In this document: positions 25,833-46,163 of the stretch, piece after piece
How positions within the stretch are numbered: position 1 is the first letter of the stretch
Layout: each line of letters opens with the position of its first letter
Assembly (NCBI GenBank): GCA_002633005.1
Contig: NMRA01000025.1
Coordinates: forward strand, 1,660,304-1,713,199
Direction: 5' to 3'
DNA from: Phoronis australis
Taxonomy: Eukaryota > Animalia > Phoronida
DNA: 52,896 bases
Program-made: the position numbers and the translations under genes
Notes under the pieces: model-generated
Databases searched by the model: none
Told to the model about the DNA's origin: nothing
The model's input: only the letters and a program-made list of their open reading frames with translations

Positions 25833-26041
25833 CGTTATTAGGACACACGAGTGTTGTTTGCATGGACAGGCTGTGAGAGGTGGCTGAAGTCTCGAAAACT
25901 AAAGTTTGCTGTCTTGTGTTTACGGTGAATGTGGCCTTTATTGAAGGCATTTTTGGTAAACTTTTGACATGTTTTACTGTAAAAGGCATTTTAAATCTTT
26001 TCCATAATAATACAACAGAAATGTCATTTCTTGAAACAGGA

Positions 26042-26135
26042 AAGCGTGATGCAATGAGCAGTCCAAGCGTGATGCAATGAGCAGTCCAAGCGTGATGCAA
26101 TGAGCAGTCCAAGCGTGATGCAATGAGCAGTCCAA
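26042..26135. repeat. 23-bp minisatellite x4, downstream of the EEF1AKMT1 stop (likely 3' UTR)
   Basis: (AAGCGTGATGCAATGAGCAGTCC)x4, perfect copies. Confidence 0.95.
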
Positions 26136-26784
26136 ATATTTTTTCTTAATGGCAGAGATGCTTATTTTTTTCAATCCCAGTCCCATTACATAACAATTTG
26201 CCATTTGACTTGTGCAATGGAGTCAGGAACATGTAATAAAAGTAATACAATAGTGATTCAGGTCAACCAATGTTTGCATTGTTTAACTTACACCTTGACA
26301 CTTACAGTTTGGAGAAATGTTATTTTTGTGAAAATTCTCATTTATAGAAATCAACTTTAGGTTGGAAATACCTTTTGGTGTAGGTAAATATACCAATTTT
26401 ATAGAAAACATCTTAAAAAGGGTCACATTTCCCTTTAACTGAAGACATGTGTTATACGATGTGGAAGAGCTGCAGTATAATACTGCTAGTGATTTACAAA
26501 ATGGAAGTAAATAATTATGTATAAATATTAAAGTATCAATATGACAATGAAAAAAACTTTTGGTGTTTCAAAAAAAAACAATACACAATAATAAAGATCT
26601 GTTCCCAGAAAGCACTAAAAAGCAATGTAGCTGGGCATTATATCTAGTGTAATGTTTCACATTTTGATTCATTGAAAATGAATAAGGATGAGACGTCAAG
26701 AACCATTGGCGTTCGAAATCTTGTTTTATTAAAATTATAGCAATTTACAGAGGGATCTTTTTGGAATATTGCACCAAGAACATC

Positions 26785-27684
26785 TCATTTGCAAGCTTTT
26801 GTATTTACAATGATCTCCACATCAGTGGAATCGTAACTCGGCTCCTTCCGTTGTGACCATGATTTCATTGTCGCCACATGTTGGAACACATGCACAGATG
26901 TGTCATTGAAAACGTCACTATACTTTGTTCCATGTGGAATTCTAAACTCGCACGTGTAAGGCAACAGTTCTTGAATATACATATACTTTTCTTTAAAAAC
27001 TCTTTCTAATAAGTTTTCCTCCATTGCCTTAAAACTATTCCCAATAACAACTATATTCTTCAGGCACTCGCCCCAGTTGGCCCATAACAAATTGTTGTAC
27101 AAAGCTTTCCCACAGTGAGGCATATAGTACAGTGTCTTAACACCAGCTACACGTTTTCCTTCTTCATTATTGTCAATCATTTGCATATCTAGACCTCCCA
27201 GGATTTCCTTCTCCAGCTCACTGAACACTGGATCATACACCAGACATCTCTCTGGCTTCACGCACTCAATTAGCAATAACAATAGACTAAGCTGCCACCT
27301 GGCAGTAGGACATGAACTAAAGTTCCCCAAACCATAGCATACAATCTCTGTCCATGGGTATTCTTTTTTGCTGTCACAGTTCCCATGGCTTGTTTTGCAA
27401 TGAGATTGTAGGCCTCCCATTTCATCGTTACCAGAGTAAGGTCTAGAACTTATTTTCGGGATGTCTTGATCAATCATTGATTGTGCAGCTTGCTTTAATA
27501 CTTGTTCCATGTCTACCCATAATCCATCAGTGATCAAGTCTTGCTTGGCATTATCCAGCTTTTTCTTAAACAGTCCAACATCACAGTGTGTGTCGTCGTG
27601 AACTGGATCCACCAATGGTTGCTTCTTCGCACGCCGAGCGGCCTTACGGCGAGACACAACACAAAACTCAGAGTCAGCCATCAT
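26785..27684 (-). CDS. SRRD: SRR1-like protein (SRR1 domain), 299 aa, intronless CDS
   Basis: Motifs IVCYGLGNF, ARWQLSLL, VYDPVFS, NNEEGKR, TLYYMPHCGKALYNNLLWANW, VIGNSF and DVFNDTSVHVF are typical of SRR1/SRRD. Minus-strand AATAAA at 26725-26730. Confidence 0.93.
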   Translation of the reverse strand: MMADSEFCVVSRRKAARRAKKQPLVDPVHDDTHCDVGLFKKKLDNAKQDLITDGLWVDMEQVLKQAAQSMIDQDIPKISSRPYSGNDEMGGLQSHCKTSHGNCDSKKEYPWTEIVCYGLGNFSSCPTARWQLSLLLLLIECVKPERCLVYDPVFSELEKEILGGLDMQMIDNNEEGKRVAGVKTLYYMPHCGKALYNNLLWANWGECLKNIVVIGNSFKAMEENLLERVFKEKYMYIQELLPYTCEFRIPHGTKYSDVFNDTSVHVFQHVATMKSWSQRKEPSYDSTDVEIIVNTKACK

Positions 27685-27692
27685 AACTTAAC

Positions 27693-30600
27693 TCACTTCC
27701 AGCAAAGTACAATACTGGGGTCTGACTCGATTCTATCACTCAACTCTTGGTGGCTCATTTCTGAAATTGGTTAAGAAAATTCAGAATTATGACTGTTACC
27801 AGAAATTTAAGGAAACCTGACCACCCAAATGTACCACCATGGGTCTATATTCAACCTACTTTTGCAGTCACAATTTAATTTTCTCAGTGTTTGTGAGTTT
27901 TCACAAAACGTCCACTGTCCGTCTAAAACAAAGCTACAATGGTTCATTCAGTGTTTTTAGACTGCCCAGCCATTACATTTGCAACTAGGCAGACTCCTAT
28001 TACAACATTACATGATGCATTTTCTGTTTATAGACCCCTCATTTCCAAAAGTACACAATGTGGGTTTACTTATGGGTTAGAGGAGGCAGTGTGGCCTAGT
28101 TGATAAGTGCCCGGCCCGCTTTCTTTACTCGAGGTCGTGGGTTCGAGTCCCACTGTGTCACATTGCTAAACCCTTGAGCCAGGTTTCCAGCTCCTCAGCT
28201 CAGTTTTAGCCATATATTAATAAAGCATAACAAGAGCAACGCAGAGCGTTGAAATGCGCCCACAATTACACCGCATACGGTATCCTTCTAGGGTTGTTCA
28301 TTGGTACCATAAAGTGGCCAGTAGAGGGCATATATGTAGTATGTTGTACTTTGCAAAATGGAAAGGCATGATCCTTGTCTCCTCAATAGGCTAGGGGCAA
28401 AATGTGAGTAATCTTCATAATACAAGCACATCCTATACACCAGTTGCTTAAAGCACCACAGAAACATAGAATTAAAAACAAATTTACCAACATACGAGAT
28501 TAGCACAGCATTAGAATGCCAGAAACAAATTTCTACTTGGAACTTTTCCTTCATAGTCACGAAGTAACACAAAGTACACACCTGAAGAAAATACAGAGGT
28601 CAATGTAAAATACTAAAATTGCCACTAGAGGCAAATACTAAAATTGCCACTAGAGGAATACCGGTAGTCAGAATCATCCTAAAGTCGTCATCGTCCGTTG
28701 TCAACATCACATAAATACACTTGCTAAATTTAGTAAAGATCCTGCAAACGGTTTGGGAGATACAGCCATGGGCGCAAAAAAAAAACAAAACTACCACTAG
28801 GAGGCGCCACAGTAGTCCAAATCATCTGAAAATCATTGTCAGCTGTCTTCCTTATAGTAAGCACATACACGCCAATTTTCACAATCATCCTTTGAGCGGT
28901 TTGGTTGATAGAGGGGTGGACGCAAAAATACAGACTCGAAAACAGTAAAAATGGCCACTAGGTGGCGCAAACTACGTCGAATCCATCTGAAAACAGTAGG
29001 ATAGCGTCATCTCACTAATAGGTGCCTACATACCAAATTTCATGAAAATCCGTTCAGGACTTTTGAAGATACAAAGGTAAGCGTAAAAAACTAAAATTGC
29101 CACTAGGGGGCACACCGGTAGTCGGATCCGTCCGAAAGTTCGCACATGCCGTCCCATTCATGAATGGAACATATGTGCCAAATTTCATGAACGTATGTCA
29201 AAGGGTTTTGGAGATAGAGCAGCGGACGCCAGACGCCGGACGGACGCCGCCCGGACGGACGGACAGAGATGACGGCATAATGCGTCCACATATAAATATG
29301 TGAGCGCATAAAAATGGTTCCAGGTGATCAGTGCCATGGGCCCACATGCGAGGCATGCGCACGTCTGGTACAACGTATATCAGACCGCATGCAATTATTT
29401 TTTTTACTTATGGGTTACCAGACAGGTAAGGTGTGCTGAGTATACACCATGGAGCTTACTATAAAAATTGCTGAATAATTTAGCCATTCCATCAAAACAG
29501 CAACAAAAATGAAGGAAATCTGATGAGAAAAAAAATTCAGACAAACCTTTTGTGAGAGTAATTGTCAATCGTTTTGAAAACTACAATTACTGCACCTACC
29601 ATTTTTGGAGCATATCTCATCACAACTGTGTAAGCCGTTGAACCAGGATGCGAGTTTGAAGGTTTTGGGTGGTGACAAAGACTCTGTCTGTAGTTTGACG
29701 GGGTAGGGGTGGAGCTTCCTGATAAAGTCGTGGATCAGACCAAATTGAATCAGTCTCCTACAGTGTAAAGTTTAACACAGTGAAACAACAGTACACCCTG
29801 CACCACAAATTTTGCTCGCAGACAATATTTTAGAACACTAGTACCACGTCAACTGTACAAAATACAAATCATTGATGTAAAAGGACAAAACATTTTATGA
29901 GAACATTCATAACCCAATATATATACAACATCGGATGTTCCGCTTCAGTCAAGCATCGTCAGTAACTATACAACCAATGAGAAGTTCAACAGCAAACTAC
30001 AGTACTGCAGTAAAACATCTTATGGTTTATATTATATGTTTTATTGAAATATGAATGTTCTCATGAAACGTTTCGTCTAATTTTTATTAGTATCATGACC
30101 AAAAACTGATATTGTACAATCATTACGTTAGAATACAAGTTGACTTGGCTACACCAAACTTTGATTACAACTGATATTTTTAGAAAAGCTTGGTACGTTC
30201 CTTGTACTTTTATAGATTGTAGCGAGTGTCCCACTTCATCAGATAACTTTCATCAAAAGTTAGCATAGTATATACTTGAGCGAGCAACTGGTACTTTTAT
30301 ACTATTGTGTCCACTCTCAACAAGCTTACATGAGATTTTTAGTCGCGCCTTAAATTATAAGGTAATAGGCGGATATGATGTGCCCTCATTTTGAGAACCA
30401 GTTTTCTCCACTGAATATCAGGCATCAAACTGGTTCTCAAAATGTGAGCACATTAGATCTGACTATTGCCAATTAGAAAATAAGATTTTTAACAAATACA
30501 TGACATATAGCCCCATTTTGGTTGATATGAATCCACATCAGGGTGATGAAAAATGTTCAGTCTGGTATTTGTCTAATTAATTATCAATCATAGCATGTTC

Positions 30601-33600
30601 CATGTAAAACCTCTTCATCATTCACCATTGCACAGTGATAAGACATTATAAATTATCACACCAGATGATAAACCTGCATGAAATACATCAAACATTGACA
30701 TACATCATTTATATGAATTTATAGAAATGGTTGACTTGAGTGTATTAATTAAAAAGAGCATTTATCATAAACGGAGACAAATCAAAATTGTGTGTAATAA
30801 TACCTGAAGTTTTAAAAATCTCGGCACGGACTGAATATTTTGGGAATAAAAACCATATGCTTCGATTCAAAAACAGTATTCTCTCAACATCTCAAATTCA
30901 AATTCCTTTGGTAGAAGTAGAATACACATTGTATGAGTGACCTAGTTTTCGAAAGGTATGGCCACTAACAGACTTCCGCCCTGAGCTGGACTAGTGGGGA
31001 ATGTCCCACTTAGCGTGCCGATTTTTTGTTAGGAGGGGCAGCATTGTGACTCTATAAATCAGTAGAACGGTAATGGTACCAGAATGTCCAGTGATGAACT
31101 GAGTGTGATGTAAAATAGTGGTAAGCACGCCACAGTGACACAACTGCCCTCCTTACACACAGCATTGTGGGTAAATACCACAGAAGCGAGAGAGGTGTTG
31201 TGGCATTTAGGTATGTGATCATTGTAACAACAATTTAGCATGCAGGCTTACTAATAGAATTACAATACACCTCACATTGTGAAATTGAATATGACTAGCT
31301 GGAAACAGGTGACAATAATAAATAAATTCACCGTATTGGCCAAGTCCACAAATTCAGAGCGTACCTTTCATTAACCTTGAGAGTACTCGGGTTATATCTT
31401 GTACAAAGGTCTCGTACAGTGGTGCCAGGAGTCAGCGCACAGTACATTGAGAAGACGTCGCGAAAATGAGGCAGTGACCGTGCTGAAACATTAAGTGATT
31501 GCAGACACATGACCGATGACTGAAGGTCTGTTTCATGATAAGTGACTTAAGACTTGAGTCAAAAATTTGGTCTTGCGCTCCACACAACAATTTCTGGAAA
31601 ATAATTAAATCTCAGTTACGAACAAAAAATGCAGCAAAGTCTCCGACAATAAGGGCTAGTTACTGAGATAATTTCAATAAATTATTTTTATATTTTGATG
31701 TGGTCATAATTACTTGACTAAACTTTTATTCAATAATTGAGAAGTGGGAGTATAAGACCAAATTTCTGTCTTCAAATCTTAAATCACTTTTCACGAAGTT
31801 AACACCACGGCTGGGTTGCATAAAACTTAAAAAATTATCCGCTGGATAAGTTTGATTGTTGTACGTCAGGTTTATTGTTCAACAATAACGGTGTGATGCG
31901 TGATAATGCGACGTCATAGTTGCTATATGGCGTATAACTTTTATGCAACTGGGTCCTGGTTTTCCATACATCTTATCTACCAGCAAATTTCACTTAGAAG
32001 TCAAGGCTCCTATCCACTGTACATATTTATCTACATCCCCTAACTTGTGCTTTTCATACATTCTCATATTTAATGTTCAGATGAATTCATATAAACACAT
32101 AGTACTTTGTAACAGATAAATCAAGGTACATGAAACACACCTAGCCATACATGGTGCACAGTGTGCAAATACATGATGACTTATAATAATGTATAACATT
32201 GCTTCATGTATCACTCATTGACTATTTTAAACTATGAATGACACTTCAAGAAGGCTAACCTTACAAAAAAACGAAGAGAGATGATCATAATTCTTATGAA
32301 AACTTCCAGAATGCATAAAAATGTTAGTCAAGAGTATTTATATCCATAGAAAGGTTGAACTTTTAAAGCTGTTTTTTGCCCTGTTCAGCTGGCTAAAATC
32401 CATGAGGCCTTTTACTTTATAAAATTGGTCTCACAATGTTTCTTATTGTGACAGGATTCTATTTGGATTACCAATAAGAAAGCTTCAGTTTATATGTTGT
32501 CGGCAAATCCTAAAAATAGCACATGTAGGCATTACCTGTGACTTGATCTGATGACGGAATTAGAATCTCATCATAAGGAACGTCATGGAACTGATTTTAT
32601 GAGAGTAAAAAGTCTAATTTGACTTTCCCTTTTTAGCTAGTCAAGCAGGGTGAAATGTAGTTTTAAGTTTCATAAAACAGCCAGCTCGCGAGTGCCCCTA
32701 TCATTTTCATAAAACAGCCAGCTCCTGAGTGCCCCGATCATTTTCATAAAACAGCCAGCTCCCGAGTGCCCCTATCATTTTCACAGACAGCTTACGGCCA
32801 TGTATACTATATTAATTTTGTAAACAGCTGAAGACAACTGTAAACTGCATGTTGACACATACCGTGTTTAGCTACGTACTGTAAGCAATTGGACTGTAGC
32901 AGTTTGTTATGCACCAACTCCTTGATGCGGGCTGTGGTTGTGTAGACGTTAGAATACTGTAAAGGTCAAACAAGGACAGTCAGTGCCAGGTCTGGCAGGA
33001 CTATGGTCGATTGTTTAAAATGAAGTATGTACAGTTGAATTTAGAATAGTTTTTAATAATCTCCTTACTCATCAAGAGACAAGCAACACAAATCACTGTG
33101 GTTACCACATGGAACAGGTACAGTACATCAAAAATTGCTGAGAAACGTCTTATTAGGGGTGCCAGGTGTACTCATTGCACCCCTTTTGCAGGGTAGATTT
33201 TTCTGTAGGAAAAACGGGACGACCAGTGTGCCGTTTGTGGAGCTCATGCCAATGCAGTTTGCCTTTTGCGGGGACAAAATGGACATTTAGGGGCTTATTG
33301 GACCCTGCGCGGGTACCGCAAAACTTGCTGAAAAAGTACTGCCTACCCGCAATTTTTGGTACACGCCTGCGGGCACCTTATCAATATAAGACACTCCCAG
33401 GGGACTCAGGTAGGAAGACGTTGGCCGAAAATAACATAATAATACTGCACGTATTTGCTAGTAAATCTCCACTTATTTTGCCATTTTTCAAAGGTTGATT
33501 TTGATTGCCTTGCTGGAAATGAAGGAAACTTTACCAATATTGTTTTTTATAGTCTGGTCTGCATGCCACCTGTTGGCCACATGACTAGGACACAATCATT

Positions 33601-36600
33601 TGGTCACACTGCAAACCATGCTAGTAAAAGGCTAAAATTTCTTTAATCTTTATTTCTGAGGAGAAACTTTTAATGACAAAATAGAATGTCACTTGTCGGC
33701 CATATCGTGGGCTAAATAAGTGAAGAATTATGGTGCACATAAATAGTGTAAAACACAGGCACAAGTTTCGTATTTAAAAATATGAGAACTTATCACAGCA
33801 TGTGTTTTCAAGAAATTACAACCAGGCCCAGAAATCTTGTTGGCACTCGGTTGAGAATTCATTTTTACTAAAAGCTGTTAAAATTTACTTACCTGAAATA
33901 TCGGTATGAGTTTTATCTTCTTAAAATACCTGAAAAAAAATTAAAAGGAGACCATGTCACTAACATCAATATTCATTCACATTAAAAATGGGGCGGAGTT
34001 AATGACAACAGCCACTTGTGAGACACTCACAATGAGAAATCTTAGCAATGGAAATGTTCAGTTTATACGCTGTGTGTTTATGTATGCATACTGCCATAAC
34101 ACAACAGTCCAATGTGAACACCTAAACTCTTACAGTGGCGCTCAGAGTGAAACACTTGGAATAAACGAAATTTTGCATCATATTACTAAACTCACAAAAC
34201 AAAAAGTATATAGGAAGCACATTCCTGCTTTCAACAAATTTCCAAATTACTGGTTACTTACAGTAGATTCTGCATACATGCTTTCACCAAGTCAAGTTCC
34301 ACGTCAGTTTCTGCAGCGATCTTAGCAACGTGGTTGTAGCCATTGACATGGGAGAGCACCTGAAAAATATCACATTCAGTCACTGCCAGACAGAATGGAG
34401 ATACAGTACAGGGCAAAAGAAATCAAACAAAATACTGTATTCCTCCATCATGACAGCTAATTTTAATAACAGCAAAATTGACTGATAGGGACAACAAAAT
34501 TCTAATTACAGAGTGTTTTAGCCACCTTCTAATTGTCCAGAAAATTCCTCTTCATTCACAGTCATCAGGGGAGACTACTCCGCTGATAAAGTCATGACGG
34601 AATTCTGGGTCATTTTGTCCCAATACTTTTGGCTTGTACTGTATTAGGGACAAAGACCATCCCTTTATTTGAGATTAAAGTTACTAAATAACAAGAATAT
34701 CATAAAGCATTGAAATGTGCTCACAGCTGCACAGCAAATGTAGGCCTATGCTTCTAGGGAAAAATGAAAAGGACTCCTTGTTCCCGTAACAGAAAAATAT
34801 TTGCAGAATTTCATGAAAATTTGTCCAGAAACTCCAAAGATACAAATGAATGAAAAAAAATATAGAATTGCTTCTAGGAGGCACAGCGGTAGTCAGATCT
34901 ATGTAAAAGAAGTTGTCATAGGAATACACATATTTCACAATGAAATGCAAGGAGTTTAGCCGATAGAGCTGTTGTAGCTGCCAAGGGCAGCACAGGGAAT
35001 GATAATCACATGAACAACAAGAGTCATGTTATAAATTGTTTATTCATTATGTCGTTCGTTGTCATGCTTTATAGTCATTCATTTGACTCAAATCGGTTGG
35101 TAAACTACAACAAACAATATAAACTACTAAGAACCACATGTAAGTGTTGACGAAGAAATTTTTTCTGTCAAACGATGCTCTTGTCAGCCCGAATACGTCT
35201 GCCAATTTTGATAATCATCCAGATGATTCAAAAATAATTAAAATGGCCACCAGGCGGCACAGAATACGTTAAATCCATCCCAAACTGAAAAGCTGCTATT
35301 GCCATCATAAGAAAAATTTGTTTGCCAACTTTCATTATAATCCACCACAGAACTCTGAAAATACAGAGGCAACAGTAAAAAAAATGAAATAGCCACTAGG
35401 GGGCGCAGCGATAATCCGATCTTGTCCAAAAAATGTCGTCATCTGTTGTCAGCTTCATAGGAACACATCTGCCAAGTCTCAGTCATTAAGATCCTGCAAG
35501 ATGACGCAAATATGCACCCATATATAAATATGTGAGCGCATAAAATGGCTGCTAGGTGGCACAGAATACATCTGAACTATCCAAAAATAGAAACACATTG
35601 TTTCCCTGCTCACAGAAACCTTTTGCCACGTTCCTGTAATTCCATCAAGAAACGCTGAAGAAACAGAGGTAAACATAAAAACTAAAGTCGCCACTAGGGG
35701 CACAGCAGTAGTCGCCCGTGGCCCATATTTCCAACTGCCACATAGCAGACTGTACAATTCCACTTAACGTTGACAATGCCAGGTGCATTTAATGGCAGCA
35801 GTAAATATCACTTACTTGTTCTAATGTGGAACAGCACGATGCTCTCATTTGAGCCTGATCGCCACTAATGAACACAGGTACATCCTGATCACTGACTATA
35901 GCTGGCTCACAGCCTCCCGTCACTACTTTTAAATGGATAAAGTTGGAGTCATCTGTAATTAACAATTAATTCTGTTTATGTGAAATGACGTATAAGTCGT
36001 GCACTTTGCGTACAAGGCGAAGATGAAGGGACGTCAAATAATTCAATAACAGAATTGGCTTCGCATGCCATATTTTCCATTTTTCTCAAAATACACGGAA
36101 TGTGAAAATTTTTCATGACTTGTGCAGGAAAACAATTTTGAATCGTTTATGTTATATCACTTCACTATAAAGCCTATCTTCAACGATAACACCTGTAAAT
36201 TTGGTTCCTACAGTATGTTAAGAGCATCGCTCTAGCCCACTAGTGCCATAAAATTGCCAAATGTAACGAACTGTTAGGTGTACTGGCTTGCTTTTGTCTA
36301 TGTCACCGCAAGAATCACCTTTTAATTCAAACAGCTGCGAATAACACCCGCACACAATGGTGTTCTATTCAGACCCCTATTCAATACAAGTGTTATCGGC
36401 CTTTTGTTGTTTGTGCTGGGATCTCACGGTGACGCAACATGGCACAAAAAGGCAGCTTCACCTATCATTTGAAGGGCTTTCATTTGTGAGATTGAACTAT
36501 CTGGTGAGTTCAATACATCTAAAATAACAAAATTCCATTGAAGTTAGGCTATAAAGCCACACAACACCACCATGTTTACAACACACCATGTTTGCAACTC

Positions 36601-39600
36601 ACCATGTTTACAACACACCATGTTTACAACACACCATGTTTACAACACACCATGTTTACAACACACCATGTTTACAACACACCATGTTTACAACACACCA
36701 TGTTTACAACACACCATGTTTACAGCACCATCACTATGTTTACAGTACCACCACGTTTAAAACACCACCACCTGTTTATGACACCTCTGAACTATTCCTT
36801 TTTGGTACTTGGTTATGTCAGTTAAAGCTGCCAGGCTCTAGAAAGTTGTGTGTAGGACCACACTCAACTGACTAGCTCTTTATGTTAGAAAAGCAAATTT
36901 GGGCAATCATCACTTACAGGGGTCCAGCATTTTGAGAACTAGCTTGACGCCTATTATTCAGTGGAGAAAACTGGTTCTCAAAATGTGAGACCTTTATGAA
37001 TATTAAGTGACTATTATCCAATTTTGCACTAAAAGCAAAACTCATTTTTTCAACAGCTTATCAAAATCTAATCCAACTGCGATGCAACTCTTTCATTTTT
37101 TCAATAAAAACAGAAACTCATTTTAGATATATAAAGAGGCCAGTGTCAAGTAAATGAGACATAACCAGGTTTATCATTTTGGCAATATCTGTAAAAATGC
37201 ATCTTTGACATTCCACTTTTTGCAGAATGTTATCTTACCTCATTACAAATGAGAAATTTTTGACAAAAATCAACATTTGCTTTATACATAGTACAAGAAC
37301 AATAGAGAGCATGTGTGAATTTGGAATAAATGTGCCACAGACACATCAATACTAATGACACCACAGAGGCCATGTGCTGTAGAAACGTTGAAAGCATAAT
37401 AAATCTTGAGAGGATAGTGAATCCTGTTTTGATGATTTCCAACCAATCCTCATTGTATCACCTGCTAATGCATCATTGCTGTTAACCTTAAAAGATAAAA
37501 GCAGGAATCAACAAAAAACTCATACCCCCTATATCACAGACTGGACATTATGGTTCTTGGTGGGTGGTCTTTACCCACAGTTGCTGAGTAATTCGCTAAA
37601 AGTGTAGGTAATGTTTGCCCATTTAGCAGATTTTGAAAGGAGTTTTCAAAATTTCCCACAAACTTTCGACCGTTGTCAAGGGTTACAGATCATTATTGCA
37701 GTTTAGAGAACAGGATGGGAAAGTTGTTTTTAGCATCTGTTAATAGGCAAAAACCGGATTTGGTATCCTTTTAAGGTTCATCATACGACTAACCCCGCAT
37801 AACTACCTAATTCTATTGAACAACAGCCCGCTGTGTTTAGCTCAACAAGGATCTTCTTCAGAATGATAGGGAGGTTGGTCTTACTTTCTTCTTTAGATAA
37901 GAATCCTTTCTCAATCTGAAAAGAGCAAGTTTGGAATGAAACACGTACTATTTACCAACTGTTTTGACGAATCAACCCTAAGAAATTGACTCTCAAAACT
38001 AGGCCATTTCATAGCAATCTATTGGGATTCAGTTCCTTTTAATTTTATGTCTTGAGATTCCTTCTCACACTGAAACTTGAGAATTCTGAGGTGATTGGAA
38101 CCAATGACAATGACAATGACAATGACAATGACAATGACAATGACAATGACAATTTTGATACTGAATTTACATTAGTTGTTTTAATATTTTCCTGTTTAAG
38201 CAGGGAGTAGGTAGAATTGTCCTTTTAAGTGGTACGAAAGGCAAGTGTCACTTTAGGGGTATCGCATTTTGAGAACCATTTTGACGCCAGTATTAAGTGG
38301 AGAAAACTGTTTCTCAAATTGCAGGACACCTTTAAGTGACCGTTACCGAAAGGGAAAATAAAGCTCATGGGCATGTTCCAAAGTTCAATTTTGACTTCAG
38401 TCTACGATTTGTCTCTACCACCCAATTTCGAAACGTTTACAAACAAAATTACGTCAAACTTAAGACAAAACTTAAGTCAAAAGCTTAAATCAAACTCAAG
38501 GTCACTTTCTTGGAATGGACTTTAGGACAAACTTCAGTTACATCTTAAAATTGAAATAAGTTCAAGATTTATCTTAGCTAAGTCAGTTTTCTTGGAAATG
38601 GTCTCGTGTCTGTTGTTTTCCTGGACTTATCAAATGTTTCCTGTGTTTTTGAAGCATGACAACTGAATACAACAAACTGTTCTGGCTGTTAACGAAGCAA
38701 TCTAGAAGCCAGTTTGATTCCGCAGACTACGTGGTCCAATAAGACTTTTAAGAACCAAACTTACTTCATAAGTGCGCAAGTATCCAGCTAGCTTTTTCAC
38801 CACACCTTCATAGCACTCGGAGTTCTTGATAGTGCAGTCAAAGACGAAACACAGATTGAAGATGAGAGCATTCCTCTTGTACTGATGTCCCTCTATGACG
38901 ACTGGACAACCAAGTATCTTGTAACCAAGGACATTACTGCCAATACATGAAAACAATTCAGTAAAACAATAGCAGCAGAAAATTACCGAACACTGTACAA
39001 AGAGTAATAGCAATGAAAATAATAAACACAGTTTAGCATTCAGTTCATGAATATTTATCACATGAAACAAAATGGCTCCCAGGCATCAGGAAGAAAGCAA
39101 GTCAGGCAGATTAACATTCCAAAAAACAAAAACGTCCCTCAGCTACATTCATGTGTAAATCCTATAGGTCTGAATATTGCCCACTTGATAAGTTTCTTGA
39201 CGTATACACAGGACTTGGAATGACCAATGACAAAAAAGAGGAAAATTTTCCAGGTGAAAGAAATGTTTCAAAGTTTTAGAACACAAACCCTAGCTCAATA
39301 GAATGTCGTCATCCAATGACATCCAGCTATTCACACACCGGCTCCGTTATTTTCCCACCAAATGTTTTACATGTTGCGTGTATTTATTCTTTTGATAATA
39401 CAACTCATAGGAATTTGTGAAACGTCAAGAACTTGCAATAAAGATGGAATTTTATAAACCTTGATCGTCAATTTTATTCTCAGCTACACTTAAGACGAGT
39501 AAAGAGCTTGCCATTCCCAGTGACGTACATTGTGATTAATTTGTTCTGTAGCTCCGGCTTGGTTATAATGAACACGTGAAGGTACCTATCAAACTGTTCC

Positions 39601-41393
39601 CGACTCAGGTAATCCTCAGGTATCTACAATATACAAGGGTATTAGTATTAAACCATTTACGTGTAAAAACAAAGTAACAGCAAAACACCCACAATTCAAG
39701 ATCCAAATGCACCGAGAAAGTGTAACAAAACAGCACTCTGATGTCGTACTCTTTGTGCCACATTTGCGTTTACGTCAAAATTGTTGGTGCTACCTCAAAC
39801 TGTTTAACATACAAAAAGGTGGGCAAAATGTTCTTGAACACTACCAAATTCCACAACATTTTCTTTTTGATTAAAATTCATACATATCACATCACATGTC
39901 ATTTGCCATATCGCGCTTCATTGTACTTTATCTCTTTTTTTGTTGAGAAAAGATTTGATTACATACGAAAATTTCAATTGATCCAGTAGTGTTCTTTTTG
40001 TTTTCATAAATCAAACTTCATGGTTTATCAAGGTAACTTAATTAGGTAGGGCAGAAACTCTGGATACCAAAATCAATTTTGCAATTCAGATATCAAACAG
40101 CTACTCTATCAACTTCCAAAAGTTGGGCAAAGATAATTAGAATTACACTTAATGACTAAGTTCGTCTATGCATTCAAAATTTTACTAATGTTTGGTTCAT
40201 TATCTACGAAGTGACTCTGAATTGAAATGGCTGAAAGGGAGACGCTTACGTGAGTGACGTCTGTAGTCACAGTGTGGTTTAGCCTAGCCTTGGCACAAAC
40301 CTGTACTAAATATATAGCTTTGCGCCGACATGCAAAAAACTGATCAGATAAAATCTGACACAAAATTAGTGTCATTTAAAATTGCATTCTTCCTTGAGTA
40401 CACTAAATTATTTAGCGGTGTTGGAAAATTGGTATTCTACAGTTACTCCGCAGCTAAAATTGTGGTGCGATCTTTTGCGTCGGCTTTTAGCGCCATGAAA
40501 TTTTGCATTACTTATTCAGTTTCTTTCTTCGCCGATTCTTCAATCAACTAGCTGTTGTCCTTTCACGAGCTTGCGTACACCTCACAACAAATTATCGGAA
40601 TTGCTTTCACTTCATTATAAGTGTTTCGATTTCTGATACTTGCAAACCGAATTTCAGAACAAATTTTACTGCTGCAAAGGTCATCATCTCCCGAGAAATG
40701 TAGCAAAAACTTAGGAAATGGCACATGTGCGTGTCATGAGCGTACTGTTTTCGAAACAACGACATACTTTTCTTTGTTACAAAAAGGGGAGAATTACACA
40801 AGAAATGACAATTATTAGATTGCTTTTCACTTAAACAGCTGTAACGCCAACGGGCAAGGTGAGTGGCGGCTGTCTTCCTGATTTTGCATGCACCCGCGCC
40901 GGTCTTTGATCTACATGTACAAGTTTCACGGCGAGGTGATGAGCAGAACGACCTGGGCTGTGTGCAATTTCAAGGTCTGTCGGAGCTCAACAGCACACAG
41001 TGGTAGCTAGCTGGCTGGCTATAGTAGCCCCGCGGAGGACAGAATGTCACCTAGCCAACACTCAGCTTTTAAACACAGCTCCCCTAGGGCCCTAAGCTTA
41101 GGGTTGGTTTACCCACAGACGTCCTCAGTTTCTGATCGTCCCCAAAACAATTGGGGACGACTAGAGCTTAGAAGCTGAGGACGCCGCCTACGGACTATCT
41201 ATGTCATTGTCACTCTGCCTAAGACTAAGTCGTGGTGTACTGCTCTGTACTGCTCGTGCTATATCACGATAGAATGAAACTAAAAGTTCTAATGGAAAGT
41301 ACTTACCTGAAAGGCTATCTTAGGACCTGCAGTAGGATGGAATTCACTAAAGACTATTGCTCGTATGTCACCATAAGTTTCGCTGTCTGACAT
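27693..41393 (-). CDS. NPRL2: GATOR1 complex protein NPRL2, 390 aa; 11 exons: 41393-41307, 39623-39529, 38936-38765, 37915-37807, 35952-35816, 34359-34262, 33929-33893, 32956-32863, 31482-31365, 29757-29600, 27760-27693
   Basis: The spliced frame is open over 1173 nt and all introns are GT-AG. Motifs [34 protein letters not shown] (arginine finger, human R78), [34 protein letters not shown], and C-terminal [21 protein letters not shown] (human [22 protein letters not shown]). Confidence 0.96.
28080..29402 (+). mobile_element. tRNA-derived SINE, interrupted by a HINE insertion and flanked by a 15-bp TSD, in NPRL2 intron 10
   Basis: A-box TGGCCTAGTTGA (28092-28103) and B-box GGTTCGAGTCC (28140-28150). 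Direct repeat TTTACTTATGGGTTA at 28065-28079 and 29403-29417. T-rich tail. Confidence 0.75.
28229..29314 (-). mobile_element. DINE-1/HINE-like non-autonomous Helentron
   Basis: On the minus strand: T-run, then subTIR ATGCGCTCACA with a partner inverted copy, a GTCC microsatellite (around 29225-29265), internal GCCACTAG(A/G)GG subrepeats, 3' subTIR TGTGGGCGCAT, hairpin CAACGCTCTGCGTTG and terminal CTCTTGTT. Confidence 0.8.
30361..30470. mobile_element. About 110-bp palindromic MITE; further copies at about 23959-24035, 36901-37019 and 38240-38347
   Basis: Core TTTTGAGAACCAGTT ... AACTGGTTCTCAAAATGTG hairpin in four intronic copies. Confidence 0.75.
32669..32783. repeat. About 37-bp tandem repeat x3
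   Basis: TTCATAAAACAGCCAGCTC(G/C)CGAGTGCCCCTATCATT units. Confidence 0.9.
34690..35760 (-). mobile_element. Degenerate HINE-family copy in NPRL2 intron 5
   Basis: Begins AACAAGAATATCATAAAGCATTGAAATGTGCTCACAG, contains GCCACTAGGGG subrepeats and the end motif ATATAAATATGTGAGCGCATAAAA (around 35522-35545), shared with 28229-29314. Confidence 0.65.
36560..36745. repeat. 16-bp minisatellite, about 11 copies, in NPRL2 intron 4
   Basis: (ACAACACACCATGTTT)n. Confidence 0.95.
38102..38153. repeat. (CAATGA)n hexanucleotide microsatellite, about 8 copies
   Basis: Directly visible. Confidence 0.95.
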
Positions 41394-41639
41394 GTCCAGA
41401 GACCCAAGCACAAATTATGGAAATTACATGACGTTCTTGCTGAGAAGTAGCAATACAATATTAAGAAATATTTATAGTTTTTAAAATATAGAATTAGAAT
41501 AAAAAGATACGTTGACATGTGTTTAATATTTAAATTTACTGAAATACGTTTAATACAGTTATCAACAGCTAACGGTAAAATTTGATGTTAAAAAATGGTA
41601 TGCCGACTATTGTTTTGCACATAGTAAACACGTCTTGTA
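41394..41639. promoter_or_regulatory. Putative bidirectional promoter / 5' UTRs between NPRL2 and CYB561D2
   Basis: Only 246 bp of AT-rich sequence separates the divergent start codons (41393 on -, 41640 on +). The TSSs are not directly visible. Confidence 0.65.
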
Positions 41640-44600
41640 ATGCAATCGGTGCAAACGGACAAGCAAAGCAAACAGCCAATTTGTGTAGTCTCGTCGTCGG
41701 ATGACAAGATTACTTGCACTTTACTTAGGTTGTTCACAATGGTGGCCCATTTTGTTGCAGTTCTGTTCTCAAGTTTTGTCATTTACACTGCGTGGCCAGG
41801 TTCCAGTAAGTCAAATCTGTTACTAACAGTGTTAGCCAGCTGGTTACCCCCGTGAGTGTACTTAACTCTTAAGTTATGATCAAGCAGCACATAGGTATAT
41901 TGTGTTTTGGCTTATTATCATGACGTAACCCTTATCTAAACAGCTGGGTAAGGCAAAACTCTGTAAACCAGTCATACAGAAACCAATGTTTCATTCCAAA
42001 TATAATGACTCATTCATAGCGATCTGGCTAAATTGACAAACAAAAAATCTCTAAGAAAATTACAATTAGTGGTTTTGGACGTGTCCCTCATAATTCATAT
42101 GCACCCTAGCCTAACTAATTGGCCAATATGTGTATTTTATTTTGCAGTAGACCTATAGTGTATTTTACTCTCCTTAATCAATGCCATCTTCAAACTGCAA
42201 ATAACTAAATGTTTATAACCTCTTGTTTTGTTTTTCAGGCTTGTTCAGTTGGCATCCAACGTTAATGACTGTTGCTGTGAGTGAATTAATTTTTGCTAAG
42301 ACAGTTGTGAAGCTCATTCAACATTGTTCAGCGCTTGGAATTTTCGTCTTATTAGAGGATTTTCTATTTTTTGGTTTGGATTTTCTCTTATTTGGTTTCC
42401 AGATTCCTCTTTTTTCATCTATTTATCATATTATTTTGACTTTATTCATGAAAAAAATTCATTTCAGTTAAATTTTACAACACAAGAAATATTTCTGTCA
42501 ACACAACCCTTTTTATTTGTGGAACGATACATCACCTGGAAAATTTTCCTTTAAAGTTTTGTCATTGGTCATTCCGAGCCCTGATTGCCAATTCAAGAAT
42601 TATCCAGTCTTTCAAAATCATTAAAGTCAGTTTGAATAACCCTAAAAGAATTTTGAAACACCATACACATAGTGTACCTAATTATCGGACGGAACCTAAA
42701 TATCGGCATTTCATAGAATCTTACTTGAAGCATAATCTGAGAATTAAATGACACCAATTTTTGTTCCGTTGTAATGCATTCAATGTCCGGCACCGTCTCG
42801 TTTTTTTACAGCGTTGCCTCGTTTTGATTTCACCGAGAGAGGGTGCAATTTAGACCCCCAAGTCGGCCTAAAATGGACGATCGCATAAATCGGTTATAAA
42901 AGTTGAAAATAAAATCTTTTTCCACAATGAAACCATCTCATTGAACTGACAATATGTCACTGTTCCATTTTTCCGTTTGTTTTTAAACTCAAGTCAAACC
43001 CCGACCGCGCACGTGCGGGTGTCATATCAAGAAGCCTAAGTCATACTAAAAACTGCAGTGAGTTTGCACGTGCTTTAGTCGTCTGCACTAATTCATCGAA
43101 ACGACTTGGCGCCGTCATCAGATTTCATTTCATGGATAATTTTGTTGCGAATGGACCTGGGTTCTAGCAGCATATATGTCAAAACACTCGAGCTGAAATT
43201 TGGCGACAAGGTGCCCGCTGCCATTACGTGGTTAGTCAGTTTTCCGCGGTGTGGCGTATGGAGAAACATGGTGTCCGATATTTAGGTTCTCCGAAGGTTT
43301 GGTTGTTGTGTTTTTTGAAGATCAGTCGGAACATAAATGTGGCTTTCAGTGACAAGATATAGTAACAGAACAATTCCGTGAAGGTAAATCTTTATTTCAG
43401 CTAAGAATTTACAACAATCCGTAATATTTTCAATTAAATATAATGCAAAATGTGCCAAAACGTCCGATTATTAGGTCACTTGACTGTAGTTTATAAATTA
43501 TAGTATAGATATATATGATTCTGCAGAAAATTTCAATTTTGACTTTTGTATAAATATATGTTTTTTAAAATGTTTTTTCAGTTCGCTTTCTTCATGATTG
43601 AAGCCATATTGCTGTTTTCACCAGAGAGCTCTCTTTTAAAATATGCCCAACGGAGTTTAAAGGTAATTTATTTTAGAGTTTAATATCTCTGTAATAACTG
43701 TAACTGTTCATCACTTACTCGGGGTACCATATGGAGGTCAATTTTATCTTGTCAAATTTCTCAGCAAAAATAAAGATTAAAGTTGCGTTTTGTCCTGCTT
43801 GGCTGGCTAAAAAATGATCTCATTAAAAGGTAAGTATGGCAAATTTAAAACCAACCATTAGACGTAGCCGCCCTGGTTACTTTGATTTCGTACACATCTC
43901 AAGCTAAGCGCGTTTTTGTTGTGGAGTGGAGACAGCATCATGCTGGGCATGGACCTCCTCTCTGTATTCATTTGGCTCATAGTGCAAATCAAACTTTCCA
44001 CCTTCATTCACTGAAAAATTATTTCTACCCATTTTTTGTGTTTTCTTTGGATGAATTAATCTTTGTTGTAAACAAATATCCACAATTTATTTTTGGAGCA
44101 TCAAAATTCGCATAGAAATTGTAAAGCTAATACTTGTGTTATCTTTACATCTGAGTCCTCCAGCACACTATCCAAAAACACATGGCTCACAAACAATAAA
44201 TGAAAATTCTCTACCAGAGTAAATTAGTATGGCCTACGGTGAATCATTTGAGGATAAACTTACCTAACCCATCTGATGATGACTCATGTTTGGCATTTCA
44301 ATATTTCACTTATTGTAATATTCTTCACCATGATAAAGAGTCAAGGATATCAAAACGATATGCAACTCAAGAAAGCACTTCAGAGTTTATTGGGATTGGT
44401 CAACACTAAAGTTGCAAATTCGAAAATGGTATGTGCAAACATTCCTATTGTCTCGAGTTGGGTTATGGAAATGGTATCCTGTTATGTTAAGGATTATTAT
44501 GAGACTGATTGTATGAGAGCAAGAGGCCTACAGGGTAATTTGATTTTCGTTTCTTAGCCAGCTAAACGGGGCAAAATGCAGCATAAAATTTTAGTTGGCT

Positions 44601-46163
44601 GATGTTAGCTAATAGCTAGGTTTGTTCTGTTGCCATATTCCATTTTGTAAAATTTCCATTATTTACTGTTGAAAAAAATTACAATTTTCACAATTTTTTA
44701 TGTGATAAGTGTCAGAAGAATTACTGCAGTTGCCTGAAAATTTGAGAGGAAAATTATGATTGAAGTGTTAAAAAGAATTCGCCAAGAGTGTCCTACTGTT
44801 AAGGCATGGTAATGGTGCTGGCTCTGACTATAGAATATTAAGGCATGGTAATGGTGCTGGCTCTGACTATAGAATATTAAGGCATGGTAATGGTGCTGGC
44901 TCTGACTATAGAATATTAAGGCATGGTAATGGTGCTGGCTCTGACTATAGACAGAGGTGTGCCTCAAGTGGAGATTTGCAATATCTCTGTAGAGAGTCTC
45001 TGTGACATCTATGGCCACTTGTAAGATAGTTCTAGTTCGTCAGCGAGGCAATATCGACCATGCTGCAAAATGCAATTTACTTTTTATGATAAGGTCAACG
45101 TACAGCAATGTTTGCAAACACGTCCAAAAGTAAACTTTAAATGTTTTGTACATGTAAATTTTTTTTTAATTTTACCTTAATTTTCTAAATCCCGTTAAGA
45201 GTAGATGTTTACCGATGACTGAATACACAAAAATTCAATGTTATATGTAATCATAACCTTGGCTCAACATCCAATAGTAATCATAACCTTGGCTCAACAT
45301 CCAATAGTAATCATAACCTTGGCTCAACATCCAATAGTAATCATAACCTTGGCTCAGCATCCAATAGTAATCATAACCTTGGCTCAACATCCAATAGTAA
45401 TCATAACCTTGGCTCAACATCCAATAGTGATACCAATTCTTCAGCCATGTCTCACATGTTCTCTAATTTGGGTTTATATCTGGATTTAAGATATTATATT
45501 TACCTTCATATTTATCTTGTGCGTCTCTGAGTTCATGGAAATGCAGTGTACATAACTTCATTTGGAATAAATATTACCATGTTCAGTAACCATGACAAAT
45601 AAGAACAGTCCGAAACACACTATTTCTTAGAAATCAAATGGTATGAGAGAAGCCTGAAATGTTATTTTTTAGAACTTGAATGACTCAAGAAAAGTGTGGA
45701 ACGTTTTTATTTATTTTTTTCGAAATAAATCAGTTTGTTGATATTGCAGGTCCGTGTCCACTGGATTCTACAAACCCTAGCAGTTATTTGTGCTGTTGGT
45801 GGCGCTGCTGTCATTTACTACAATAAGGACCTCCATAGCAAGCCTCACTTTACTACATGGCACGGCCTTATAGGACTCATCACCGTCATCTACACAGTCG
45901 CACAGTCTACTGCTGGCATTACACTCCTGTATCCCAACTTTGTGAAATCAATCAAGCTTGCTCATCTCAAGATATATCACGCAACATCAGGACTTGTACT
46001 GTACACTTTTGTGTTTGCCAGTCTTTGGCTGGCAATGTTCTCTAACTGGTTCGTTACAAACGTGACAGGAACGTCGTGGTATGCTTGTTTCTGCTGCCCC
46101 TCAATTCTTGTTCTGGCAGTCATGCAGCAGATCACCACAACTTATTTGCCTAAAACACGGTGA
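41640..46163 (+). CDS. CYB561D2: Transmembrane reductase CYB561D2 (cytochrome b561 family), about 232 aa; exons 41640-41805, 42239-42276, 43582-43662, 45750-46163
   Basis: Motifs PGS|SLFSWHPTLM, EAILLFSPESSLL, HWILQ, TWHGLIG, LKIYHATSGL and VTGTSWY. All four heme-ligand His are present and intron phases are consistent. The exact start ATG is uncertain. Confidence 0.93.
42666..43486. mobile_element. About 820-bp TA-flanked TIR element (Tc1/mariner-like) in CYB561D2 intron 2
   Basis: TA|CACATAGTGTACCTAATTATCGGACG ... CGTCCGATTATTAGGTCACTTGACTG|TA. Confidence 0.7.
44799..44951. repeat. 39-bp tandem repeat, about 4 copies, in CYB561D2 intron 3
   Basis: (TTAAGGCATGGTAATGGTGCTGGCTCTGACTATAGAATA)n. 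Confidence 0.95.
45247..45428. repeat. 30-bp tandem repeat x6 in CYB561D2 intron 3
   Basis: (GTAATCATAACCTTGGCTCAACATCCAATA)x6. Confidence 0.95.

Follow-up and report, generated by a model that had tools for sequence, protein, structure and literature searches.

A stretch of 52,896 nt from the phoronid Phoronis australis (contig NMRA01000025.1 of assembly GCA_002633005.1, forward-strand positions 1,660,304 to 1,713,199), hereafter the window, carries two conserved genes on its minus strand: NPRL2, which encodes a GATOR1 subunit, and SRRD, which encodes an SRR1-domain protein. The SRRD open reading frame (ORF) begins 8 nt after the NPRL2 stop codon, within the same terminal exon. The feature is real and expressed, most likely as a dicistronic NPRL2-SRRD mRNA, perhaps accompanied by an SRRD-only isoform.

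The NPRL2 gene model was built by tblastn with named homologues combined with splice-site inspection, and it comprises 11 exons from 41393 to 27693, all with AG/GT ends, and an open 390-aa translation. Coding exon 1 (41307..41393) begins with an ATG at 41393 that has a purine at -3. Coding exons 2-5 (39623-39529, 38936-38765, 37915-37807, 35952-35816) and 6-10 (34359-34262, 33929-33893, 32956-32863, 31482-31365, 29757-29600) were placed by homology and their AG/GT ends, while exon 11 follows a TTTCAG acceptor just before 27760 and contributes a 68-nt coding part (27693..27760) ending in a TGA stop at 27695-27693. The exon 10-11 splice is the sole NPRL2 splice seen in reads, the other joints being set by homology and AG/GT ends. 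The model is collinear with the named homologues exon by exon over its full length, its C-terminus falls at the homologues' end position, and the protein matches Pfam NPR2 (PF06218) at E=6e-15. The 8-nt spacer (27685..27692), in which a TAA lies in frame with SRRD and a weak AG is also present, leads into SRRD itself, an intronless ORF of 299 aa (26785..27684) identified by homologue alignment and by Pfam SRR1 (PF07985, E=3.5e-47). Two polyadenylation motifs follow on the same strand: an ATTAAA (27494..27499) within the SRRD coding sequence, which may act as a proximal poly(A) signal and yield NPRL2-only mRNA, and an AATAAA (26725..26730), the likely poly(A) signal of the common last exon. A first-pass annotation, made from the sequence alone, had placed the acceptor, the 68-nt exon, the spacer, the SRRD ORF and both motifs, and all were confirmed in the sequence.

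Two intact, conserved and unfused ORFs are thus arranged in tandem within one transcribed exon. SRRD shares 39 invariant columns with 16 homologues (17 sequences in all). It opens with tandem ATGs at 27684 and 27681, the second with A at -3 and G at +4, and its next in-frame methionine is at 27510. Against a profile made from 20 homologue N-termini, residues 1-58 reach 34.4 bits; the best of the 499 reported shuffles (of 500) gets to 6.9. Conservation of this segment means that selection acts on the AUG adjoining the NPRL2 stop as the start, rather than on the methionine at 27510. The P. australis SRRD protein has no entry in the protein collection searched. RNA reads differ from the window within SRRD at 27268, 27382, 27401 and 27446; two of the differences are synonymous and two change an amino acid (residues 80 and 95, in a variable linker).

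To follow transcription across the junction, three stranded raw-read RNA runs (X1-X3) and one contig set (X4), all under the same species label, were aligned to 26511-28010; with ~18-19% of each raw run read, X1, X2 and X3 yielded 82, 79 and 49 reads, and X4 yielded 1 contig. Most aligned reads are at least 99% identical to the window. Minus-strand depth is unbroken from the exon-11 acceptor at 27760 through the NPRL2 stop, the spacer and SRRD, to ~26720 in X1 and X2 and ~26810 in X3, with lowest internal 50-nt bins of 2.0 (X1) and 3.9 (X2). It tapers to zero just beyond the AATAAA at 26730-26725, and RNA depth is 0 in all runs over 200 nt of the preceding intron (27811-28010). The only loose read ends listed lie at 27761 (8 of 8 partly aligned reads in X1, 6 of 6 in X3 and the X4 contig, with an agreement of 0.99-1.0; 2 partly aligned reads of X2 fell below the listing threshold), and wherever a junction consensus is listed (14 reads and the contig), it is the end of NPRL2 exon 10. 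No splice joints that would indicate an SRRD intron were listed in the aligned reads. By its continuous stranded depth and the exon 10-11 splice, SRRD lies in the NPRL2 terminal exon and is co-transcribed across the NPRL2 stop, as the first-pass annotation had proposed, and the 3' untranslated region (UTR) of NPRL2 mRNA is the SRRD coding sequence and no other. Misassembly at the stop-start junction, a possibility raised in the first-pass annotation, is ruled out by raw reads that span the junction without loose ends. The suggestion that a trans-spliced or alternative first exon enters exon 11 went unsupported: among the 14 junction reads, no spliced leader or other first exon was seen (upper 95% bound 19%). 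Depths of 7-14x over NPRL2 exons 2 and 8, obtained from reads aligned to 26000-45900, were discarded because intron-only bins have a similar background in this alignment, which intronic repeats dominate.

The shape of the coverage weighs against the simplest form of this picture, in which one uniform RNA carries both ORFs. Pooled depth is 17 at 27511-27710, an interval picked after seeing the data, compared with 37 at 26961-27460, and none of 2000 uniform simulations at each of four insert sizes reached this ratio. Reads crossing from exon 10 into exon 11 number ~17 where 32 are expected (p=0.002), and they are uneven by run (10 in X1, 1 in X2 and 6 in X3). In addition, no long read or mate pair listed joins exons 1-10 to the SRRD 3' end, and poly(A) tails were seen in the aligned reads at neither the distal nor the proximal site. 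Three transcript models were fitted to the depth with end effects included. One uniform dicistronic RNA (chi 72-83) fits more poorly than both alternatives, namely a dicistronic RNA plus an SRRD-only RNA starting at ~27610-27720 in roughly equal shares (best chi 42-54), and an NPRL2 RNA that stops at the ATTAAA together with an independent SRRD RNA (best chi 43-56). Of 300 bootstraps, 4 equalled the gain in fit over the single-RNA model, but real libraries are less even than this null and the depth dips differ in place between runs. The depth is better described by adding an SRRD-only RNA with its start in exon 11 or nearby than by a single uniform dicistronic RNA, and the mixed model and a pair of overlapping monocistronic RNAs are indistinguishable by depth. 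The argument that two overlapping transcripts must raise the depth where they overlap was dropped, as simulation with end effects contradicts it. The bicistronic transcript of the first-pass annotation is upheld in its shared exon and continuous RNA, but the depth is better described with an added SRRD-only RNA or with two monocistronic RNAs.

One reading that draws on these fits is that the long NPRL2 mRNA holds SRRD as a passive 3' UTR, and that SRRD protein is made from a short capped RNA of its own, starting inside exon 11 and translated by ordinary scanning through some tens of bases of 5' UTR. It gains from the best-fitting start near the junction and the roughly equal shares, from junction reads at about half of expectation and from the depth in X2, which ramps from near 27760. 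Moreover, only 45 of the 159 dicistronic pairs reported in Drosophila are described as exclusively dicistronic, and 3' cistrons there often have their own promoter (PMC4528330). Yet the intron before exon 11 has no reads and the sequence there is CpG-poor, no site where many molecules begin is listed at this low depth, and the dips vary by run (at 27511-27610 in X1 and X3, at the junction in X2), uneven depth being common in RNA-seq. We consider this reading possible but somewhat unlikely. Quite improbable, in our judgement, is a second reading in which there is no two-gene mRNA at all and the locus consists of two overlapping monocistronic genes, NPRL2 being polyadenylated at the ATTAAA (with an end near 27475) and SRRD having its own start in exon 11. 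Its coverage fit equals that of the mixed model, and the depth of X1 and X3 tapers and then ramps around 27560, but X2 has no dip there, and the arrangement requires an unseen promoter together with selective use of a weak signal.

The sequence around the candidate RNA ends also bears on both readings. The ATTAAA, which the first-pass annotation had flagged as a possible source of NPRL2-only mRNAs, is present, but its occurrence is what chance predicts (0.63 copies expected in the SRRD coding sequence), and the region downstream of it is U-poor (26% U, against 39% at the distal AATAAA site). From the NPRL2 stop to where the RNA ends, no AATAAA occurs other than the one at 26730, whose flanks are U-rich. 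At the other side, the CpG observed-to-expected ratio is 0.2 in the 300 nt before exon 11 compared with 1.48 upstream of the NPRL2 start (41401-41700), a weak hint, in a window with few known promoters for comparison, that no promoter-like signature lies just before exon 11. Taken together, these features lean weakly toward read-through to the distal signal.

Overall, a two-ORF NPRL2-SRRD mRNA probably exists, and we infer single molecules that carry both whole ORFs. In this preferred explanation, spliced NPRL2 mRNA would run on to the poly(A) signal past SRRD, giving a two-gene mRNA, and some ribosomes would restart at the SRRD AUG after completing NPRL2, aided by the short out-of-frame spacer and the tandem AUGs in good context. 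The rules of nonsense-mediated decay suggest that the intronless SRRD, by forming a long 3' region free of exon junctions, would protect the transcript from decay triggered by such junctions. About half of the SRRD RNA may come from a shorter SRRD-only species that begins in exon 11 or close to it, much as many dicistronic loci of Drosophila also give monocistronic RNAs. Termination-reinitiation on the two-ORF mRNA as the source of SRRD protein is a more even matter than the existence of that mRNA, and we hold it about as probable as all other routes together; every translation step here is one that we infer.

Several routes to the SRRD start can be compared at the level of sequence. Leaky scanning, judged implausible in the first-pass annotation, is unlikely because 19 AUGs precede SRRD without depletion: 14 are out of frame, where 13.3 +/- 2.5 are expected from 500 synonymous shuffles. 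The NPRL2 ATG has G at -3, as judged on the general animal consensus rather than a species-specific one. With leaky scanning unlikely, reinitiation is the preferred candidate mechanism. The SRRD start lies 8 nt past the NPRL2 stop and out of its frame, which agrees with the stop-start spacing of up to about 20 nt in reinitiation; after long ORFs, reinitiation is described as occurring where stop and start are within 20 nt and out of frame, and section 13 of the same source states the distance requirements as unknown (PMC10275272). One aid to such reinitiation, a ribosome-binding site upstream of the termination point (TURBS), would speak for this mechanism but is missing, in line with the first-pass annotation: the last 150 nt of spliced mRNA ahead of the SRRD ATG contain no TGGGA, GGGA or TGGG, the TURBS motif being an 18S-complementary UGGGA. 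RNA folding near the junction is unremarkable (z -1.81 and -1.69; 10 and 12 of 200 shuffles fold equally well). TURBS-independent reinitiation has been reported in human mRNAs (PMC3923131) and in yeast under selection (PMC11952965). The TGA that overlaps the tandem SRRD ATGs lies in the NPRL2 frame, but it was rejected as evidence, since homologous proteins already terminate at the first stop and a frame match would arise by chance in 1 of 3 cases.

The dicistronic mRNA could also be read by stop-independent internal initiation, whether through an IRES-like site for the internal entry of ribosomes or driven by eIF4G. The FlyBase authors suggest that internal entry may be common, most pairs failing the requirements of scanning (PMC4528330), and the junction offers no reinitiation element. 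An internal entry site, on the other hand, has no need of an 8-nt spacer, and what lies upstream is conserved coding sequence of NPRL2 that shows no notable structure, so that we rate internal initiation as very improbable. We find it scarcely credible that the two ORFs are expressed as an NPRL2-SRRD fusion or that SRRD is a decaying, untranslated copy. The first-pass annotation had disfavoured a fusion, and rightly so for simple read-through, which meets a TGA after 3 codons, while the SRRD frame is closed upstream by stops at 27738, 27735 and 27690. It had overlooked the spacer AG at 27688-27687, which as an acceptor would join exon 10 to SRRD in frame and give an open fusion of 668 aa. The polypyrimidine tract of this AG is poor (50%, against 68% at the normal acceptor), and no loose ends are listed at 27687, with 14 of 16 partly aligned reads at the normal acceptor and the 2 in X2 unlisted. 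Among 1076 longer candidates, a search for fusion proteins returned 1 match, which is fused to a reverse transcriptase and lacks NPR2; when the NPRL2 model was compared by blastp with 121 SRRD matches, a single match at E=0.63 appeared; and by eye no NPRL2 sequence was recognized in 7 longer proteins, including the only one above 600 aa, among the best 150 of 1965 representative matches. As for decay, two of the four read differences change an amino acid, but the ORF is intact, all 39 invariant columns are kept and both changes fall in the variable linker.

The arrangement has counterparts among known two-ORF systems. Drosophila dicistronic loci (SO:0000722) are the closest, as they too combine unrelated ORFs on the same strand, a spacer below 20 nt and no trans-splicing, often with monocistronic isoforms. 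About 82% of Drosophila polycistronic loci are reported to join dissimilar genes; the spacers of dicistronic pairs range from -34 to 319 nt, and many unrelated pairs classed as all dicistronic have spacers of 1-20 nt, such as Lasp-CG43954 (9 nt), Gint3-CG42306 (5 nt), Rad1-CG34314 (1 nt), tectonic-CG42730 (2 nt) and SuUR-CG45101 (20 nt) (PMC4528330). For second cistrons, FlyBase is described in that account as postulating an IRES or scanning, without general proof (PMC4528330). The P. australis locus differs in its gene pair, in belonging to a non-insect animal with large introns and in its two-ORF mRNA, which is a probable one. Neither NPRL2 nor the fly SRR1 gene was found in 12 of the 13 supplement files of PMC4528330, searched by names and CG numbers; the terms SRR1 and NPR2 are absent from 7 supplement files of PMC7896298; and no paper on the NPRL2-SRRD pairing turned up in literature searches, outside of which lay subscription journals and bioRxiv supplements. 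The pairing, which was unfamiliar at first reading too, is thus likely to be a new gene pair that joins the Drosophila-type dicistronic class, in an arrangement known from fruit flies (PMC4528330).

Other systems are less similar. Reinitiation at the TURBS of caliciviruses and influenza B, in the SART1 retrotransposon and at human overlapping second ORFs also follows a long first ORF, with an out-of-frame start no more than 20 nt from the stop (PMC10275272, PMC3923131), whereas NPRL2-SRRD has no UGGGA in the last 150 nt and no ORF overlap, and both its ORFs are conserved cellular housekeeping genes. Green-algal leaky-scanning bicistrons share nuclear two-ORF mRNAs, conserved genes and the lack of trans-splicing, but they are described as having a weak first start and AUG depletion before the second ORF (PMC11291117), neither of which is seen at NPRL2-SRRD. 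Spliced-leader operons, in which closely spaced same-strand genes are likewise transcribed together, differ in the leader, which is absent from the NPRL2-SRRD junction reads with a listed consensus, in the 8-nt spacer and in the reads that run unbroken across it. Such operons are known in nematodes, tunicates and others.

For the question of how ribosomes gain access to a second cistron that follows a long ORF in the cellular mRNAs of animals, NPRL2-SRRD offers a clean reporter substrate outside Drosophila, with two conserved full-size proteins, an 8-nt spacer and no leaky-scanning or TURBS signature. It is also a warning to annotators that SRRD can hide as the 3' UTR of an upstream gene. The locus shows neither a new kind of system nor a functional tie between SRRD and GATOR1. 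The biochemical function of SRRD is described as uncharacterised, with reported roles in organising aggresomes and intermediate filaments and in the replication of viruses (PMC12455975, PMC10868785), and no link between SRRD and GATOR1 was found in the literature searched. The functional coupling that the first-pass annotation had raised is unsupported in other genomes as well: a scan of metagenome contigs gave 72 other SRRD-family loci, many with short flanks or from distant lineages, and none has NPRL2 beside SRRD apart from one chance match (E=0.68). Most likely, SRRD is hitch-hiking on a housekeeping transcript and the pairing is not a functional mTORC1 link.

The neighbours of SRRD in these contigs include other same-strand genes; its start region was read in 26 of the 72 loci, and 87 of 172 upstream open frames from 30 loci were scanned against Pfam. 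In three contigs an intronless 90-aa MED28 precedes an intronless SRR1-family ORF, at 34 nt in L028:3557-4700 and L030 and at 23 nt in L051:2213-3320. L028 and L030 are 99.8% identical; between them and L051, 61 of 90 MED28 residues are identical and SRR1 is 46% identical. MED28-SRRD is a candidate conserved dicistron in two diverged species with unrelated spacer sequences. A mitochondrial carrier of the SLC25 family ends 216, 138 and 163 nt before a same-strand SRRD in L011:892-2170, L019:1063-2230 and L024:1-460, which represent three species, each with a branch-point/acceptor-like AG just before the SRRD ATG, and this pair is possibly a trans-spliced operon. In L003:1382-1900 the ORF of BBIP1, a BBSome subunit, stops 169 nt short of an intronless SRRD whose ATG is preceded by an acceptor-like site rich in pyrimidines, and a CUE-domain gene precedes SRRD in L020 at a gap that is not fixed. 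In L004:1-140, a 46-codon open frame runs from the contig start to a stop that overlaps the SRRD start region, and represents either an upstream cistron or chance.

From these cases comes a broader idea, namely that SRRD is a recurrent passenger, usually intronless, in the second-cistron position behind unrelated housekeeping genes (NPRL2, MED28, BBIP1, SLC25), and that in P. australis it is made only by TURBS-independent reinitiation after 390 codons, which would tie SRRD output to NPRL2 translation. Taken as a whole this is rather doubtful. SRRD has opposite-strand neighbours in L022, L023, L002 and L006, the other Pfam-scanned loci gave no same-strand family match above noise, and both points count against recurrence. 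The passenger idea is best treated as a lead, as the other genomes may simply be compact. If true, it would let reinitiation behind long ORFs be studied on a natural example from the cell.

On the far side of NPRL2, the plus strand carries a CYB561D2-like cytochrome b561 gene at 41393-46163 of the window. It adjoins the NPRL2 start, and the two genes are probably arranged head-to-head, no more than a few hundred bases apart. The first exons of the cytochrome gene, which had no Pfam match, we take to lie near 41650-41850 and 42230. NPRL2 and CYB561D2 are reported side by side at human 3p21.31 (PMC6678546). Since NPRL2 adjoins a cytochrome b561 gene here and CYB561D2 in human, the shared neighbourhood suggests that the NPRL2 site is old and SRRD the newcomer. 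Downstream, a gene with an N6-adenineMlase domain (PF10237; 22148-26810, plus strand), which we take to be EEF1AKMT1-like, converges on SRRD. Plus-strand RNA extends no further than 26511 in X1 and X2, and in X3 it reaches ~26810, antisense to the SRRD 3' end. Intron 10 of NPRL2 contains a highly expressed repeat family at 28100-29400, with a depth of 500-2000x that comes from copies elsewhere and mainly from one strand, and a short tRNA-like element lies in this repeat region near 28100-28230.

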